Program-made: the position numbers and the translations under genes | Notes under the pieces: model-generated | Seen by the model: the letters and a program-made list of their open reading frames with translations, nothing else | Told to the model about the DNA's origin: nothing | Database searches by the model: none | Shown here: piece after piece, positions 3,250 to 15,813 of the stretch | Numbering within the stretch: position 1 is the first letter of the stretch | Layout: every line of letters begins with the position of its first letter | UHGV virus genome: UHGV-0172319 | Length of the DNA: 20,424 bases | Direction: 5' to 3' (one strand) | Origin: a virus

Positions 3250-3424
3250 CAAATCATCTACAGGAAACTTTGTCGTCTATACGAATAGGCATACAAATAC
3301 AGCAGCGCCTAAGACAGCAAGCACCCCATCTACTGCTCAAAAAGTTAGTAATAATGGTGTGAATGGCTACAGTAACTTTTTAAGTTGCACAACAGGTTCG
3401 GCCATAAAAAACAGTTTCTAAAAG

Positions 3425-3455
3425 CAACGGCTCATAATGAGCCGTTGTTGTTTCT
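3425..3455. terminator. Bidirectional rho-independent terminator between convergent protease gene and Q
   Basis: Perfect palindrome CAACGGCTCAT..ATGAGCCGTTG (3425-3447) followed by TTGTTTCT on + strand and preceded by an A-tract (T-tract on - strand). Confidence 0.55.
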
Positions 3456-3834
3456 ACTCACATTCTAAACGTATTTCGAGCATGCTAAGGCAACCATCGA
3501 TAAATCCCTCTGCCATCTGGATCTCGATGCGTATCAATTTTTCATCCTTCTTGCGCATTCTCGCTATCTTACGCTTAGAAATGCCATACAAATAATGCGC
3601 TACCAGTAGTGAATGCTCATAAGGCTTTCGCTTCTGAAGTCGGGCTAAGCAACCTTCTATAATAAGGGCATCATCATCGGTGCATGAAAGACGAGTTTTG
3701 CTTGTCTGAGGAAGAATCCCTTTAAAGCCAGCCGCAATAGGTGAGTAATCGACTCCTGAACTATCACTCGCTGCCCAACCACCCCAGCGCTCTAATACCA
3801 TCTGAATATCCCGCATGTAATCTCCACTGTTCAT
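3454..3834 (-). CDS. Late-gene antiterminator Q (QuuD / phage-82-type Q family)
   Basis: Core sequence MRDIQMVLERWGGWAA...IAAGFKG...LVAHYLYG...IQMAEGFIDGCLSMLEIRLE matches the lambdoid Q/QuuD family. Start at 3834 overlaps the upstream stop (ATGA); alternative start at 3816 gives MRDIQ. The longer track ORF to 3954 would overlap the upstream gene and is unlikely. Confidence 0.75.
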   Translation of the reverse strand: MNSGDYMRDIQMVLERWGGWAASDSSGVDYSPIAAGFKGILPQTSKTRLSCTDDDALIIEGCLARLQKRKPYEHSLLVAHYLYGISKRKIARMRKKDEKLIRIEIQMAEGFIDGCLSMLEIRLECE

Positions 3835-7314: not shown

Positions 7315-8351
7315 GATGACACTCCTTTCCCTGCCTCAGTTGACCAGATGTTGTTCCACCCAAACTGCGCCAGACCGTGGTTATAGCCTTTTGCCTTCAG
7401 CCCATCACGATCAGCTTTTGCACGGACCAATACTTCAACTTCGCTTTTCGGCTCGTTATTAGCTTCAAGGTCATGGTATCGACGCCAGGCAAGATCACGC
7501 TCAGCGGTATCAACACCAGCGTCCTGGCTGTAGCCATTCAGTTGCGTGGCCTGTCTTTTTGTCTTATTCCAGTCTTCTCTGGCTGGTCGCCCACGGCTTT
7601 CCCAGCGCGTGGCACTCTGCAGATAGCCTTCGAACTTCTTCGGGCCGAACAGCGTTTCAGGGCGCATGTACTGGTACTGCTCATCGTTGCCGTGCCAGTG
7701 CTCGTGTTTCAGGTCGATAACCAGTTGCAGGTCAGCAACGCTGTAACCTTCACGCAGACGAGCACGAATGTTTTCCAGCGAGGTTTTTGATTTCTGAAAG
7801 CGGGAGCCGCTGACCTGGTTCAAATGGGTTAAAACAAGAATGGCGTTATCGGTGATCACAACTTCAGGGTCTGGTTGCGACGCAACCGGACAAGAAGGTT
7901 TTTTACCTGATGGATCAGTAGTTGAATTTACTGACGGATCCCCGCCAGATTCTGACGGGTGAAAACCGCAATTCTGACCGGATTTTGACGCATCAAATTT
8001 TGACGGGTCAGATTTTGATGCGTCAGATTTTGACGGGTCAGAATCTGACAGGTGAGCGAATGCAACTGTCTGGAGTTTTGCCACATTCAACTGATAAACA
8101 TTGGAGGCATTTCGGTTGCCCTGTCGCCGCGCTTTGCGTGACAACCAGCCATCGGCTTCAAGCTTCGCTATTGCCGTTCTGACAGTGCTGACGCCTGCGC
8201 CAAGCTGGCGCGCGATTGTTTCAATGGAAGGCCAGCAGACACCTTCGTCATTGCTGAAATCAGCCAGGCGCGCCATAATAGCCACGCTGGATAACTTCAT
8301 TCCTGACGCTGCACAGGCATCCCATACATAGCCTGTCAATTTAGTGCTCAT
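7311..8351 (-). CDS. Phage replication initiation protein (replisome organizer, O-like) with N-terminal HTH and internal repeat region
   Basis: 346 aa; N-terminal winged-HTH-like segment; central peptide repeats (SDSDPSKSDASKSDPSKFDASKS) encoded by DNA iterons; position after cro/cII matches lambda O / P22 gene 18. Confidence 0.7.
   Translation of the reverse strand: MSTKLTGYVWDACAASGMKLSSVAIMARLADFSNDEGVCWPSIETIARQLGAGVSTVRTAIAKLEADGWLSRKARRQGNRNASNVYQLNVAKLQTVAFAHLSDSDPSKSDASKSDPSKFDASKSGQNCGFHPSESGGDPSVNSTTDPSGKKPSCPVASQPDPEVVITDNAILVLTHLNQVSGSRFQKSKTSLENIRARLREGYSVADLQLVIDLKHEHWHGNDEQYQYMRPETLFGPKKFEGYLQSATRWESRGRPAREDWNKTKRQATQLNGYSQDAGVDTAERDLAWRRYHDLEANNEPKSEVEVLVRAKADRDGLKAKGYNHGLAQFGWNNIWSTEAGKGVSS
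7948..8051. repeat. Iteron array (about 7 tandem copies of a roughly 12-15 bp unit, consensus approx. TCAGATTTTGACGG); candidate replication origin inside the replication gene
   Basis: Direct tandem repeats read in sequence (tctgacggg / attctgaccg / gattttgacgc / aattttgacggg / tcagattttgatgc / gtcagattttgacggg / tcagaatctgacagg). Confidence 0.6.
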
Positions 8352-8694
8352 GCTTCAACCCTTTTAAACTTATCCCTGAACCGCTCAACAGGCTGCATGC
8401 AGTCATGTGGGTAACCTTTTCGCCTGAAAATAACTTGTCGCTTTTCGCGTTCATATCCGATGACGTGGACTTCAATTCCCCGGTGGTCTCTGTATTTGCG
8501 ATCAAGCTCTTCCACTCTTTCGGCCCCTTTTCATTCATGGCTGAAAATGCGCCTACCAAATTGTCCGCAGGCTGGTAGTTGTGGCTGCCATCGGCGCAAC
8601 GTACTCTTTCCACATAGCCGAACGGGACATTACGCCCCACCAGCGGCGGACAACGAAATTGCTTCGCGGGTCTGAATCGGTTTAAACTGTTCAT
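8341..8694 (-). CDS. Hypothetical protein between cII-like gene and replication gene
   Basis: 117-aa ORF with plausible RBS (GGAG, 9 nt spacing); no recognisable motif; overlaps the replication gene start by 11 nt. Confidence 0.4.
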   Translation of the reverse strand: MNSLNRFRPAKQFRCPPLVGRNVPFGYVERVRCADGSHNYQPADNLVGAFSAMNEKGPKEWKSLIANTETTGELKSTSSDMNAKSDKLFSGEKVTHMTACSLLSGSGISLKGLKHEH

Positions 8695-8755
8695 GCGTTA
8701 GTTTCTCCACTGAATACGACACGCCACGACGCCAGGAGCTGCACACTCGCTGGCG

Positions 8756-9220
8756 TCACTTCTTTTGACGACGACTGAATAACGCCACAATCGCGCGAAT
8801 TTCTTCTTCACGTGCAGCCAGATGACGTCGGTGATGTTCCTGAATCTCTTCGGCTTCATGTTTTTCAATCACCCCATCCTCAAGTGCTTTCTGGATAATT
8901 TGATCCACCTGCCCTCTTGCAGCTGCTGTACGCATTGCTCGACTGAACAAGTCAACACGGTCTAGATCTTCCAGGCTTGGCAAGTCCACCAGAAGTGCTC
9001 CGCGGCGCTTGGCAAAGTAGTCAGCAACAAATGACGTATTAGAAATGTCTTCCATCGCTTCCAGTTCAGTTACTTCAAAGAACCGGCATCCGTTTTTCTC
9101 GTACAGGTTGTTGTTGAACTGGGTTTCTGACATGCCTAACGCACCAGCCATAGCCTGACGGCCTCCGGGGTACGCCTTGCACATCGCTTTCACTACTTCT
9201 TTCAAGGTTTGCTCTACCAT
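8756..9220 (-). CDS. CII-like early regulatory protein (putative)
   Basis: 154 aa from ATG at 9220 with RBS AAGGA; located immediately downstream of cro as lambda cII / P22 c1 is. The longer ORF start at 9289 would overlap cro. Confidence 0.5.
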   Translation of the reverse strand: MVEQTLKEVVKAMCKAYPGGRQAMAGALGMSETQFNNNLYEKNGCRFFEVTELEAMEDISNTSFVADYFAKRRGALLVDLPSLEDLDRVDLFSRAMRTAAARGQVDQIIQKALEDGVIEKHEAEEIQEHHRRHLAAREEEIRAIVALFSRRQKK

Positions 9221-9245
9221 CTTGTTTTTCCTTTGGTAGTTACTT

Positions 9246-9443
9246 TTACGCTGCTGAATCTGTAGCCTTCTGGTAAAGAGCAGCGTCATATTTCAATTTG
9301 CCTTTTGTGATTCGTTCGATCACGAAGGCCTGTTTCTCTGGAATGACTTCACCCCACCTGCAAACTGCCGGGTGAGAAATACCGAGCGCATATGCGGTTT
9401 TGGATACACCGCCAAAATGCTCAAGAACTTCTGATTTACGCAT
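9246..9443 (-). CDS. cro: Cro-like repressor (P22 Cro family)
   Basis: 65 aa; VLEHFGGVSKTAYALGISHPAVCRWGEVIPEKQAF...KGKLKYD resembles P22 Cro (as recalled from memory, not searched); divergent from cI; RBS GGAGGG. Confidence 0.8.
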   Translation of the reverse strand: MRKSEVLEHFGGVSKTAYALGISHPAVCRWGEVIPEKQAFVIERITKGKLKYDAALYQKATDSAA

Positions 9444-9538
9444 GTTCCCTCCTAGTTAACCTACGCCCTAAAGGTAACAAAAGGTACATTAAATAGCAAA
9501 CAACAGTTACAGGAAAACAATGTAACATTCGTTACATG
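9444..9538. promoter_or_regulatory. OR-like immunity operator/promoter region between divergent cro and cI
   Basis: Contains operator copy GGTAACAAAAGGTACATT (9473-9490) and a related inverted element TGTAACATTCGTTACATG (9521-9538) overlapping the cI start; several GTAAC/GTTAC hexamers. Confidence 0.65.
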
Positions 9539-10198
9539 AAAACAGAGATGAAAGACCGAATCAGATCAAGGCGTGTACAGCTCGATATAACGCAGCAGAC
9601 CCTAGCTAAAAAGCTGGGGGTTAGCCGTGTATCTGTAACAAAATGGGAAAGCGGAACCACAAAACCAGATGGAGAGAACCTTCATCAGTTAGCGCTGGCT
9701 CTGCAAACCACCCCAGAATGGATTCTTTATGGTCAGGGCGATGATGAAAAAGTTGATGACACAAAATTAGTGCCATACTTAAAAACACCAACCGCCGTCC
9801 CAATTATTTCTGCTGTTCAGGCAGGCCTGTGGACTGATACCTATGCATGCTCAAGGCTGACTGATGTGATTTCCTGGACTCAAACAACTGCTAATGTTTC
9901 TGACGAAGTTTTTGGTCTTGTCGTTCGCGGCGAATCGATGACAAACCCACATGGACTCCCTTCAATACCTGAAGGCTCTATCGTAATCGTTGAACCACAC
10001 TATGGTCAGCTAGATGACCTTTATGGGAAGATCGTAGTTGCAGTTCTGGATGGCTCTGCTGAAGCTACGGTGAAAAAGTTAGTATGGGATAGCCCTTATG
10101 CCTATCTCATGCCACTAAATCCAGTGTTTAAACCCATTCAGATTGATGGAAATTGCAGAATCGTTGGAAAGGTTGTTCAGATTACGCAAAACCTATAG
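9536..10198 (+). CDS. cI: CI-type prophage repressor (N-terminal HTH plus C-terminal S24 LexA-like autopeptidase domain)
   Basis: 220 aa; HTH (LDITQQTLAKKLGVSRVSVTKWESG); C-terminal VVRGESM (Ser nucleophile) and TVKKL (Lys) as in lambda CI/LexA; divergent from cro. Confidence 0.9.
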   Translation: MKTEMKDRIRSRRVQLDITQQTLAKKLGVSRVSVTKWESGTTKPDGENLHQLALALQTTPEWILYGQGDDEKVDDTKLVPYLKTPTAVPIISAVQAGLWTDTYACSRLTDVISWTQTTANVSDEVFGLVVRGESMTNPHGLPSIPEGSIVIVEPHYGQLDDLYGKIVVAVLDGSAEATVKKLVWDSPYAYLMPLNPVFKPIQIDGNCRIVGKVVQITQNL

Positions 10199-10218
10199 TC
10201 CTCACCTCATCATGTAAT

Positions 10219-10245
10219 GCCAGCGAGATCGCTGGCTTTTTTTTT
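10219..10245 (+). terminator. Rho-independent terminator downstream of cI
   Basis: GCCAGCGA..TCGCTGGC stem followed by a run of nine T. Confidence 0.6.
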
Positions 10246-10249
10246 ACCC

Positions 10250-10310
10250 AAAAGGTAACAAAAAGTACATTACACACTTGACCATCATGGTAACTAAAGG
10301 TACATTCTTA
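10250..10310 (+). promoter_or_regulatory. OL-like operators with pL-like promoter (-35 TTGACC 10278-10283, -10 TACATT 10301-10306, 17-bp spacer)
   Basis: Two further copies of the 18-bp operator: GGTAACAAAAAGTACATT (10254-10271) and GGTAACTAAAGGTACATT (10289-10306); the latter overlaps the -10 element. Confidence 0.65.
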
Positions 10311-10583
10311 TTACACCGTAGGAACCATTGGTTACCACGGAAAGTTCCTTGTTCTGGCTGTTCACTTTCCCCTTGAGGGTGTCAGCCAGCCTTTTCAGGG
10401 CACAACATGCAAGCGCACTCCTTCACTTACCAGTTATGGGTGACAGGTGTGAAACGGCGGAGTGCGCTTGCAGTTGTGGTGAAGTGCAGCCCTCAGAGGT
10501 AACCAGAAGATAAGCATCTGGCGCCACAACCCAATCACGTAGCCAGCGTGGTACCAGGAAGTAAGAAAGCTGTGTGTAGTCTT

Positions 10584-10655
10584 GGCGGTACCAGGGTCTT
10601 CAACCTGAAAAAAGGGGGACGAAGATAATGTTCTACCTCGGTACCGCCCTTTTTT
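10584..10655 (+). terminator. Terminator/attenuator-like structure in the early-left leader
   Basis: 9-bp perfect inverted repeat GGCGGTACC (10584-10592) / GGTACCGCC (10640-10648) followed by TTTTTT; an upstream AAAAAAGGG tract (10608-10616) can alternatively pair with CCCTTTTTT (10647-10655). Confidence 0.4.
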
Positions 10656-10791
10656 ACAAAACAGACAAGGGCATCACCGGGCGACGGGCTCATAACCCAA
10701 TCCACCCGGGCGGTTGCAGCCGCAGGTGCTCTTGTCTGTTTTGTGGAGAAACTAACTGGCGGTTGCGACCGCCAACTCGAGGGTTAAGACG

Positions 10792-11163
10792 ATGAGTAAT
10801 GACCGCATGACCGTAGTGCCCGATTTCCTGGGCGAACTGGATGCCGGCGTGTTCATGAACAAGATCGCCGCTGCGCTGAATACCACCGCGCTCGGCGTTC
10901 TGAACAACGGCAACAAAGGCAAGGTAGTCCTCACCTTTGATTTTGAGCGTATGGGTAACTCCGTCGAAGAAAAGCGCGTCAAGATCAAGCACAAGCTGAA
11001 CTACAGCACCCCGACACCGCGCGGTAAAGCGTCTGAAGAGGACACAACCGAAACCCCTATGTGGGTCAACAAAGGCGGGAAGCTCACCATCCTCCAGGAG
11101 GATCAGGGGCAACTGTTCGGGATCACCGGTACGGTGGACGGAAAGCTTAAAGCGGCTCAGTGA
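10792..11163 (+). CDS. Hypothetical early-left protein (resembles CPS-53 YfdP-type gene by position and size)
   Basis: 123 aa; RBS GAGGG; first gene after the pL leader; family assignment from memory only. Confidence 0.5.
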   Translation: MSNDRMTVVPDFLGELDAGVFMNKIAAALNTTALGVLNNGNKGKVVLTFDFERMGNSVEEKRVKIKHKLNYSTPTPRGKASEEDTTETPMWVNKGGKLTILQEDQGQLFGITGTVDGKLKAAQ

Positions 11164-11219
11164 TCCGCAGCAACAAATTCACTGATACCACTTCGATCAT
11201 CAGTTAATAAGGAATTTCT

Positions 11220-12047
11220 ATGTCTCAGTTAGACAGCGGTGCATTTAAGCAGGTAAAAGACCTGGTCCTTTCTGGCTACCACCTGAATGATATTCAGGAT
11301 CTGGCATGCCCTACCGCTTTGTTGCCAGAAGGAACCAGCGTTGAAAGCCTCGAGCGTTTTTCTCTGGAGCGTTTCCGCTTTCGCGGCGCAATGACCACGA
11401 CCAGCATTGACGACTTCGCTCGTTACTCGAAGGGTTACGCCAGCGCCGACGAACCCGCCCGTTGCTTTATTGACGCTGACAACATGACCGCCCGCTCGGT
11501 ATTCAATATCGGTTCCCTGAAAAATCCTGGACATGCCGATAACGTTGCCGCTATCACCCTGAAGAAAACTGCCCCGTTCCGCGCTCTGCTGCAGATCGAT
11601 GGTCAACGCCTGAAGCAAAAGCAAATCGCTGAATGGCTGGAAGACTGGAGCGATTATCTGCTGGCGTTCGATGCTGATGGCAATACGATGCAAATTTCCC
11701 AGGCCGCCCAGGCTGTACGCCGTATCACTATCCAGCAGGCAACCCAGCAGGATCATGAAACGGGTGACTTCGCAGGTAAACGTTCACTCATGCAAAGCGT
11801 CGAAGCCAGCAGCAAAGATGTCATGCCGGTGGCGTTCGAGTTCAAGTGTGTGCCGTATGAAGGGCTTGGCGAGCGCCGCTTTAGTCTGCGTAACAGCCTG
11901 CTGACTGGTGATGAGCCAAGCTTTGTTCTGCGTATCGTCCAACTGGAAGCCCAGGAAGAAGCGATCGCCAACGAGTTTCGCGATCTGCTGATCAGTAAAT
12001 TCGACGGTGAATCAGTAGAAACTTTCATCGGTAACTTTAAAGCATAA
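11220..12047 (+). CDS. DUF2303-family protein (YfdQ-like)
   Basis: 275 aa; RBS AAGGAA; size and position match the CPS-53 yfdQ-yfdR arrangement; immediately precedes the HD-domain gene. Confidence 0.65.
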   Translation: MSQLDSGAFKQVKDLVLSGYHLNDIQDLACPTALLPEGTSVESLERFSLERFRFRGAMTTTSIDDFARYSKGYASADEPARCFIDADNMTARSVFNIGSLKNPGHADNVAAITLKKTAPFRALLQIDGQRLKQKQIAEWLEDWSDYLLAFDADGNTMQISQAAQAVRRITIQQATQQDHETGDFAGKRSLMQSVEASSKDVMPVAFEFKCVPYEGLGERRFSLRNSLLTGDEPSFVLRIVQLEAQEEAIANEFRDLLISKFDGESVETFIGNFKA

Positions 12048-14634: not shown

Positions 14635-15813
14635 ATGGCGGCAAGGCCAAGAAAAAAAGAATACCGACATCTGCCGGACTATCTGGTATTTGATAAAGAT
14701 CGAGGTGTTTATAAATTCACACTTATTACCGGGAAGAAGAAAAATATAGGTAAGGATCGGGCCATAGCAATAGCTATCGCTAGAGAGTACAACCTGAGAA
14801 TGAGACCTGAGCTTTCCCCGTCGGTTGATAATCTCATTAGAGAATCTGGTGGGGCTACTGGAGAAGCCAAACCATTTGCTGAACATGTGGATCACATAAT
14901 GGAACGTGCTATTGAGGACGAGCGCCCTTCTCAGAGCACCCTGGATGACTGGAATAATGACGCACTACGCGTAAAAGAGTTTTTCGTTAATGTTCCTGCC
15001 TGCGATATCGAGTTGGAGCATGTTAACGCATACATCAATCAATACCATGCCGGCGCGTCTGCGAACGTGCAAAACAGAAAAGTCAGCTTCCTTAAAAAGC
15101 TGTTTTCGTATGCGGTCGATGAATCCCTGATGCTCGATAATCCGGCAACCCGGAAGAAAATGCGCAGGACCGAAGAGAAGAAAAGACAACGCCTGTCTCT
15201 CGATCATTTCATGGCTATCCGGCGCGCTGCAGCACCATGGTTAAGAACGGCAATGGACCTGGCTCTACAGACGACACATGCGCGCCTCGAAGTATCGAGG
15301 ATCCGTTATTCAATTCGCGAACCCAAAAACGGTATATGTGGTTGTGTCTGGCTCGATCAGCCAGAGAACGGTATCTATGGAACACTATACATACACCGCC
15401 AAAAGGTACAGAAGAAGGAGGCGTCGCACGTTGCGATCCCCATAGGTGATGAGTTAAAACGCATCATTGATGATAGCCGGGATAATGTGGCCAGCCCGTA
15501 TGTTGTTCACCGGATCCCAGAACGGCAGGTAAAACGGAGTAAAGAGGTTTCGCATCCCACCCAGGTGGCCCCGGACTATTTAAGCCGCTCATTCTCTGCA
15601 GTACGCGACAAGCTCGGGTTATGCAATCACCTCGCTATGGATGAAAGACCTACCTTCCATGAAATACGCGCGTTGGCTGCTCACTTGTTTAATCAACAGG
15701 GTATCGATCCACAAGGACGAATGGCGCACAGTGATGCCAAGTCAACGAAGATTTATACCCAAAACCATATTGATTGGGTCGTTGTTCCTCATGGAGAAAT
15801 TTTAACGGCATAA
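14635..15813 (+). CDS. int: Tyrosine integrase (lambda Int family)
   Basis: 392 aa; C-terminal catalytic-region motifs (HEIRALAAHL; IYTQNH with putative Tyr nucleophile); N-terminal arm-binding-like domain; position after xis. Confidence 0.9.
   Translation: MAARPRKKEYRHLPDYLVFDKDRGVYKFTLITGKKKNIGKDRAIAIAIAREYNLRMRPELSPSVDNLIRESGGATGEAKPFAEHVDHIMERAIEDERPSQSTLDDWNNDALRVKEFFVNVPACDIELEHVNAYINQYHAGASANVQNRKVSFLKKLFSYAVDESLMLDNPATRKKMRRTEEKKRQRLSLDHFMAIRRAAAPWLRTAMDLALQTTHARLEVSRIRYSIREPKNGICGCVWLDQPENGIYGTLYIHRQKVQKKEASHVAIPIGDELKRIIDDSRDNVASPYVVHRIPERQVKRSKEVSHPTQVAPDYLSRSFSAVRDKLGLCNHLAMDERPTFHEIRALAAHLFNQQGIDPQGRMAHSDAKSTKIYTQNHIDWVVVPHGEILTA

Follow-up and report, generated by a model that had tools for sequence, protein, structure and literature searches.

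How is the early-left operon controlled in a lambdoid phage that has no N gene? N-less temperate enterobacterial phages form a large group (ST64B, SfV/SfII/SfIV, mEp460, phiNP, LLS and several Stx2 phages) whose early-left control has been left open; for LLS, in which no N homologue was found, the mechanism was likewise left open and a put-like one was proposed (PMC12315714). The same question is raised by the DNA analysed here, the UHGV virus genome UHGV-0172319 (20,424 nt; 'the window' means this whole stretch, and coordinates refer to the strand given, here the plus strand). A preliminary description had drawn attention to the long leader between its pL-like promoter and the first early-left gene, and had offered three readings of it: RNA-based antitermination in the manner of HK022 put, an attenuator or an embedded sRNA.

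The locus and the early-left promoter

From its sequence, the window is part of a lambdoid prophage of the ST64B/LLS/SfV type without an N gene. The nearest phages are ST64B, 118970_sal3, phiNP and LLS (~80-83% identity over parts of the window), and none of its proteins could be assigned to an N-like family. The genes and signals that bear on the argument are as follows.

3954-3454, minus strand: Q-like antiterminator
Minus strand: O-like replication gene and nin-region genes
8694-8341, minus strand: unannotated 117-aa gene, directly 3' of the pR copy of the box described below
9220-8756, minus strand: cII-like gene
9443-9246, minus strand: cro
9536-10198, plus strand: cI-like repressor, with its own terminator at 10219-10245
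10278-10306, plus strand: pL-like sigma-70 promoter (TTGACC-17-TACATT), the sole promoter-like site in 9200-11300
10779-10794, plus strand: Shine-Dalgarno sequence GAGGG and ATG of the yfdP-family gene
10792-11163, plus strand: first early-left gene, yfdP family
Plus strand, after the cI-like repressor: yfdP-family, DUF2303/yfdQ and 5'-nucleotidase genes
14635-15813, plus strand: integrase; the gtr O-antigen genes also lie on this strand

Transcription from pL is predicted to start at ~10313. A 26-nt repeat, CCCWAAAGGTAACAAAARGTACATTA, occurs in three copies, one on the pR side (9466-9491) and two over pL (10247-10272 and 10282-10307), and these are probably repressor operators. The 117-aa protein belongs to PHROG 1170, of unknown function, and has neither a Pfam nor an NCBIfam family; its N-terminus in relatives reads MNSLT, MSNLT or MTSLT.

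The leader is non-coding, strongly folded and modular

The elements of the leader, in the direction of pL transcription, are listed below.

~10316-10340, plus strand: hairpin A1, promoter-proximal
10347-10400, plus strand: hairpin A2, promoter-proximal
10401-10480, plus strand: long hairpin B, with a 20-bp stem
10486-10568, plus strand: branched domain 5' of the seed, with a hairpin at 10503-10521 and CGCCACAAC, a motif recurring in relatives
10569-10583, plus strand: RprA-identical seed GCUGUGUGUAGUCUU, predicted to be single-stranded
10584-10648, plus strand: intrinsic-terminator-like hairpin with base stem GGCGGUACC/GGUACCGCC, then C-U6 (T6 at 10650-10655)
10656-10744, plus strand: element D, a three-way junction (P1 10656-10675/10725-10744; P2 10677-10683/10703-10709; P3 10710-10723)
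10684-10702, plus strand: apical loop of D, ACGGGCUCAUAACCCAAUC, near-invariant
10743-10756, plus strand: box GUGGAGAAACUAAC, containing a conserved GGAGAAA
10758-10773, plus strand: hairpin E, GGCGGUUGCGACCGCC, just 5' to where the ribosome-binding site (RBS) lies

The preliminary description held that some 480 bp between pL and the first gene were free of credible ORFs and highly structured, and both statements were borne out. The leader (501 nt) folds to -211.8 kcal/mol, compared with -164.6 +/- 6.7 for shuffled sequences (z = -7.0; 0 of 100 shuffles were as good), and its ORFs, of which there are some of 26-61 codons, yield no protein conserved across relatives. The lengths of its elements differ among relatives by +1, +2, +4, +19, +23 and so on, and the reading frames are broken because these differences are not multiples of 3. 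The leader is non-coding and modular. One part of it, 10640-10756, is ~90% identical by BLAST in dozens of lambdoid phages, including mEp460, SfII, SfIV, SfV, cdtI and Stx2a/Stx2c phages, and in mEp460 and LLS, the two read in detail, this conserved block ends ~36-44 nt upstream of the first early-left gene. The parts upstream of the block are common only to subsets of phages; A2, for instance, is also found in LLS-type leaders and directly adjoins element D in some relatives.

Several smaller features noted previously could be placed within this layout. The inverted repeat described as 13 bp is present as 14 nt of 100% complementarity (10408-10421/10459-10472, 37 nt apart) and forms the core of the 20-bp stem of hairpin B, which is flanked by CACAAC...GUUGUGGUGAAG, similar to D's outer stem; the covariance model of D gives B 16.8 bits. 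The GC hairpin before the RBS is hairpin E, one base away from the coordinates first assigned to it; it was found in 59 of 63 distinct relatives with varying stem sequences and loops that are usually UGCA, GGCA or GUGCAG(A). As to the two direct repeats, GGTACCAGG is present, whereas the presence of AACCCAATC is at chance level (at least two matches in 16 of 100 shuffles). Rfam gave no match in the leader at gathering score, and at relaxed E-value only weak, mostly chance matches.

Element D is a conserved structured RNA

In element D a 20-bp outer stem (P1) encloses P2, whose 7 bp close a loop of 19 nt in which a GGG/CCC stem is possible, and the variable hairpin P3. Covariation across related phages had been suggested as a check on the leader, and it locates conserved structure at D. 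Among 60 distinct class I sequences 93.9% of cells were paired, against 39-53% when the 3' partners were slid by 1-3 columns; 10 pairs showed double changes (104 cells), and the values observed for percentage paired, number of double-change cells and covariation score were each reached by 0 of 500 shuffles. The G-U pairs favour the plus strand, that is, the direction of pL transcription, and paired bases inside and outside the leader ORFs change together. The D model scores 116.8 bits in the window, where D is single copy: no second copy was found on the pR transcript, and hairpin B is only a weak stem-level match. There is no Rfam family for D.

An exact-pattern scan for the D core found it in >120 viral contigs and ~30 enterobacterial genomes. 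The gene that follows it varies, being yfdP-like or one of several unrelated genes, and D therefore belongs to the leader rather than to yfdP. The copy in ST64B has its loop changed to CUCAUUA and P2 weakened and still scores 83.6 bits.

The loop of D resembles an initiator tRNA anticodon arm

Within the apical loop of D, GGGCUCAUAACCC is identical over 13 nt to the anticodon stem-loop of genuine initiator-type tRNA-Met. The loop (ACGGGCUCAUAAYCCAAUC) was fixed by the search pattern, and its variants were sought by scans forcing a change at the CAU-equivalent positions; at the three positions these yielded 4, 4 and 0 contigs (8 in total) versus >120 with CAU, and lineages with UAU, CCU or CGU replacing CAU do exist. 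Related cores, here called class II, score 36-42 bits with the class I model and lie in tRNA arrays of Klebsiella phages, downstream of Q, directly after tRNA-Arg/Asn genes and with a terminator ~80 nt beyond (e.g. L005 2509-2578, in Klebsiella phage GZ7; also L006, L128, L156 and L204). These copies are tRNA-sized and have a 6-bp acceptor-like stem followed by A/G-CCA, neither of which is present in the window. Because its class II homologues combine a place in tRNA arrays with an acceptor-like stem and A/G-CCA, D looks like a tRNA-derived module. ARAGORN found nothing in D or in the class II copies, and the Rfam tRNA model matched only the neighbouring true tRNAs.

Sequences complementary to the D loop within the window are limited to scattered 7-9-mers. 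That the CAU loop pairs with the start codon was considered and discarded, as the AUGAG after many yfdP starts is inseparable from codon choice and CAU is not invariant. Two truncated copies of initiator tRNA sharing GGGCTCATAACCCAATC were also noticed: that in L182 (1541-1585), beside an intact tRNA-Met, has the appearance of a duplicate from an integration site, and that in L176 (~3665-3740) looks like tRNA-fMet without the T arm. Elsewhere in the window, just past the Q-like gene, a 12-pair hairpin in 27 nt (3423-3449, with ACGGCTCAT/ATGAGCCGT) resembles the D loop; this may be coincidence or part of a late promoter/terminator region.

An RprA-like seed precedes a terminator-like hairpin

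Immediately upstream of D, the sequence GCUGUGUGUAGUCUU is 15/15 identical to the conserved 3' seed of RprA, an Hfq-dependent sRNA of the host (0.04 matches expected by chance) and is unpaired in the predicted fold, between the upstream domain and the terminator hairpin. A stable hairpin that ends in at least 5 T and lies within 18 nt of P1 was found in 75 of 79 distinct relatives, with varying hairpin sequences. No other convincing plus-strand terminator was found in the pL operon. This one may work poorly, because the interior of the hairpin is 46 nt and branched. An alternative pairing of the T-tract with an upstream A-tract had also been proposed; the hairpin itself is present and conserved in place, but relatives having the same hairpin lack an A-tract with which the U run could pair.

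The RprA model of Rfam (RF00034) gives no match in the window itself. In the LLS relative it gives 40.8 bits (E 0.038; below the gathering score of 70 bits) over the hairpin and the bases just before it. By BLAST the LLS module finds a match in the chromosomal gene annotated as rprA of 5424 of 5426 E. coli genomes; the similarity covers only the last 50 nt, and full-length RprA's 5' stem-loops, where the hdeD seed lies at ~nt 31 (PMC5861431), are absent. RNase E processes RprA itself into a shorter 3' form (PMC6202311). The RprA 13-mer is kept in 37 of 85 distinct relatives, with other bases at the seed position in the rest, and since it is absent from more than half of them we regard the seed as an exchangeable cassette rather than the core function of the leader. 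The embedded sRNA or attenuator is the part of the earlier three-way reading that gains support, from the RprA seed 5' of a hairpin and U-run and from the conservation of this terminator; the put-like part does not (below).

Other sRNA families were compared with the same region. The ST64B leader (L196 1374-1492) partially matches STnc100 of Rfam (RF02076; 35.1 bits, E 8e-6, against a gathering score of 47), and the base stem of the window terminator is weakly DicF-like (16.6 bits, far below the gathering threshold). Downstream of cI in ST64B an ncRNA, STnc1310, is reported to be induced together with the prophage (PMC7067206), which also favours the embedded-sRNA reading. We found no RprA-like phage sRNA in the open-access literature. 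The prophage sRNAs Pas and HnrS were rejected as equivalents, being encoded at different loci.

A box shared by the pL and pR transcripts and a candidate antisense RNA

The box that follows D has a counterpart on the other early operon, where a further set of features is found.

8697-8753, minus strand: pR counterpart of the 3' half of D, comprising a hairpin, a GU-rich spacer and box GUGGAGAAACUAAC
8659-8768, plus strand: candidate gene for an OOP-like antisense RNA, within the pR operon and directly behind the cII-like stop
8659-8664 and 8683-8688, plus strand: predicted antisense promoter (-35 TTGCTT, 18-nt spacer, -10 TAAACT; start ~8695)
8728-8757, plus strand: predicted antisense terminator hairpin, then a U-rich tail, giving a predicted RNA of ~74 nt (~8695-8768)

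The same 14-mer, GUGGAGAAACUAAC, lies on the pR transcript at 8710-8697, downstream of a conserved hairpin (loop UGUGCAG) that follows the cII-like stop directly and a spacer that resembles the P1 3' arm. The box was found again on pR in 81 of 97 distinct loci; its variants match between both sites of one phage, and the pL and pR boxes were concordant in 25 of 26 immunity-region clusters. Two old lineages together with linkage, instead of pairing with a shared RNA, could also explain this agreement. At the pR site GGAG is the RBS of the 117-aa gene (8694-8341), and that the box there is simply a ribosome-binding site counts against a pairing role.

The candidate antisense gene has the promoter geometry TTGCxx-18 nt-TA(A/C)A(C/T)T in 72 of 73 distinct relatives, with varying spacer sequence, and the folding of its RNA has z = -3.6. 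The 5' end of this RNA is complementary to the box and antisense to the RBS of gene 8694-8341. For its first 30 nt the best pairing on the plus strand of the whole window is 10727-10757, with a predicted duplex of -32 kcal/mol where tiles average -12.7 (sd 3.6).

A possible 14-codon uORF (10743-10787) starts at the GUG of the pL box and stops 4 nt before the yfdP ATG; its start is AUG in relatives with GUGUAUGGAG. Translation from the box (GUG/AUG-GAG-AAA) was rejected as a function, since on inspection of the sequences neither the peptide, its length nor the position of its stop is conserved in relatives.

Antitermination and other explanations

A put covariance model was built from 7 put RNAs (two stems, core GAACGGC...GGCGGGYUCAGGRWGARCGGCAAU). 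It recovered the controls HK022 putL, HK022 putR and HK639 putL with 96.9, 93.7 and 55.7 bits and found no plus-strand match in the leader; with filters off the best hit in 8300-11000 had 7.7 bits, and 12 related class I loci gave nothing above 8 bits. Two put-like copies, one after pL and one after pR, were not found either, the 14-nt box alone being common to both transcripts, and the put-like option first entertained for this leader is not supported. RNA-only processive antitermination could still be imagined with D or the promoter-proximal hairpins binding RNA polymerase and suppressing downstream termination or Rho. In its favour are the absence of N, the strong conservation of D (the highest of any leader element), its occurrence ahead of several first genes that are unrelated, and two hairpins that follow the predicted start directly, as with putL. 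The failure of the put model is joined, on the other side, by the lack of a second D on the pR transcript, by the position of D after the terminator rather than before it, and by the free-standing CCA-ending copies in tRNA arrays, which misfit a polymerase-bound nascent RNA; we consider this mechanism very unlikely.

A protein-dependent, nut-like system is the better of the antitermination hypotheses, though it too strikes us as improbable. The box, in the form U[G/A]UGGAGAAAC, with the xGCAG-loop hairpin would make up paired pL and pR sites for an unrecognised phage protein that modifies RNA polymerase; one candidate is the 117-aa protein of gene 8694-8341, which directly follows the site on pR. 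Matched sites as in lambda N/nut are indeed provided by the box, whose motif is unrelated to known nut sites; they co-vary within a phage as nutL and nutR do, the hairpin loops are alike on both sides, the mechanism in LLS, with no N homologue, is open (PMC12315714), and the candidate protein belongs to no Pfam or NCBIfam family. The sole clear terminator of the pL operon, however, lies upstream of the pL site, and the search between cro and Q and within the pL operon gave no convincing ones. The pR box is at RBS distance from an ATG, and the 117-aa candidate is not obviously arginine-rich. Moreover, neither a conserved boxA nor a conserved boxB with a GNRA-like loop was found in the leader. 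The boxB-like motif reported at 10604-10615, CCTGAAAAAAGG, does exist, but the GAAAAA loop of CCUGAAAAAAGG is replaced by UUAUGCAA, UUAUACAA or CAACACCA in relatives with the same hairpin, and a boxA-like CGCYCUUUUUACAA is the terminator tail. Nor does the leader contain a small arginine-rich N gene or any conserved ORF. The notion that it hides a small N-like or other protein gene draws on ORFs of 55-61 codons (10328-10513, 10628-10795 and, on the minus strand, 10535-10705), on D-overlapping peptides that recur in relatives and on a minus-strand ORF annotated at the same place in mEp460. The recurrence merely follows the conserved nucleotides of D, however; the frames are broken by P3 indels that are not multiples of 3 and by a T5/T6 difference, compensatory changes link bases inside and outside the ORFs, and the loop lacks synonymous-site variation, all of which makes a hidden gene extremely improbable.

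The loop of D invites yet another explanation, that D is a tRNA mimic engaging a tRNA-binding partner such as the P site of the 30S subunit or initiation factors (the neighbouring GGAG would then serve for loading or as a decoy), RNase P, MetRS or TilS, or else that it is an early decoy for a host anticodon nuclease. In its favour are the 13 bases shared with the initiator-tRNA anticodon stem-loop, the near-invariance of the loop in >120 viral contigs (8 vary at the first two CAU-equivalent positions, 0 at the third), the tRNA-sized homologues with acceptor-like stem and NCCA inside phage tRNA arrays, and the presence of D in the first transcript made on induction. D is not called by ARAGORN or the Rfam tRNA model, however, class I has an outer stem of 20-26 bp and no CCA, some lineages have UAU, CCU or CGU in place of CAU, and no partner has been identified; on balance we think mimicry unlikely. 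A broader form of the idea, which we also regard as unlikely, would make D a new class of tRNA-derived cis-regulatory RNA, in which an exapted anticodon arm, presented by the three-way junction, recruits a tRNA-binding partner (ribosomal P site, RNase P, an anticodon nuclease or a synthetase) to the earliest transcript of the phage, D's 3' half, the box and the OOP-like antisense RNA form a two-operon switch that replaces N/nut, and the CCA-ending copies are trans-acting.

A proposed explanation

The explanation we favour, to which we give about an even chance of being correct, is that this is the leader of an N-less lambdoid pL operon built of RNA modules: an sRNA/terminator, a control point at D and an antisense coupling. 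Transcripts starting at ~10313 would reach the hairpin and U6 (10584-10655) and a fraction of them would end there. We infer this first step, termination with release of an sRNA, from homology and the conserved layout. The 3' part of the terminated RNA would consist of the single-stranded RprA-identical seed, the terminator hairpin and the U tail, and such a succession is the standard layout of an Hfq-type sRNA. Probably after trimming, the RNA would act in trans as a mimic of the RprA 3' seed, so that the hairpin at 10584-10655 would at once mark the sRNA's presumed 3' end and form a leaky barrier ahead of the genes. Read-through RNA would carry D, then GGAGAAACUAAC, hairpin E and the RBS. 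D, whose structure is established by covariation, may with the box form a control point for the downstream mRNA, and its outer stem of 20-26 bp looks like an RNase III-type processing or stabilising site. The exposed box and P1 3' arm, as the best trans target in the window for the OOP-like antisense RNA, may allow pairing that couples early-left expression to the early-right operon, and the heavy folding of the leader may restrict the loading of Rho on its 480 nt that are not translated. The position of the start, the efficiency of termination, the processing and the binding of Hfq are predictions in every case. It counts against this explanation that no step accounts for the near-invariant tRNA-like loop or for the tRNA-sized copies ending in CCA.

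The most informative features, the covarying D with its tRNA-like loop and the box shared with pR, were both absent from the preliminary description. The guess of a put element is replaced by concrete, testable parts, each of which is open to simple mutations in phages already in culture. D is a widespread structured RNA with a tRNA-like loop and no Rfam family; a phage copy of a host sRNA seed, carried on the first transcript made after induction, would give the phage access to the RprA regulon; and the antisense RNA would provide a sequence link between the two early operons.

Comparison with known systems

Among host sRNAs the closest likeness is to RprA, which has the same single-stranded sequence 5' of its terminator (15 nt in the window, 23 nt in LLS), with a hairpin and U tail in both and, in LLS, a terminator similar to that of RprA. 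The phage element differs in lying inside a pL leader, in lacking the 5' stem-loops and, in the window, in having another type of terminator stem. DicF is cut out of a longer prophage early transcript; here the seed is different, and families of this kind (DicF, STnc100, STnc1310) have not been described from a site between pL and the first gene. Known tRNA-like RNAs of phages include C4 of P1/P7 and CI of P4, which are processed from leaders by RNase P. D carries the tRNA-fMet anticodon arm and its class II homologues are tRNA-sized and end in NCCA, but D lacks both a D arm and a T loop, in class I the outer stem is very long (20-26 bp) and without CCA, and D gives no match to the C4 family of Rfam.

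Like HK022 put, the leader is an RNA after the early promoter of a lambdoid phage without N; unlike put, it shows no match in sequence or structure, and D is single copy and downstream of the terminator. The N leader of lambda (nutL and the RNase III hairpin) is long and structured, with a duplex suited to RNase III, and the leader studied here is likewise a long structured RNA with a long duplex before the first pL gene and with matched motifs on pL and pR, but has no N gene, conserved boxA or conserved boxB. In lambda, an OOP-type RNA is not known to pair with the pL leader. In position the candidate antisense gene resembles lambda OOP: it abuts the 3' end of cII and has its own predicted promoter and terminator.
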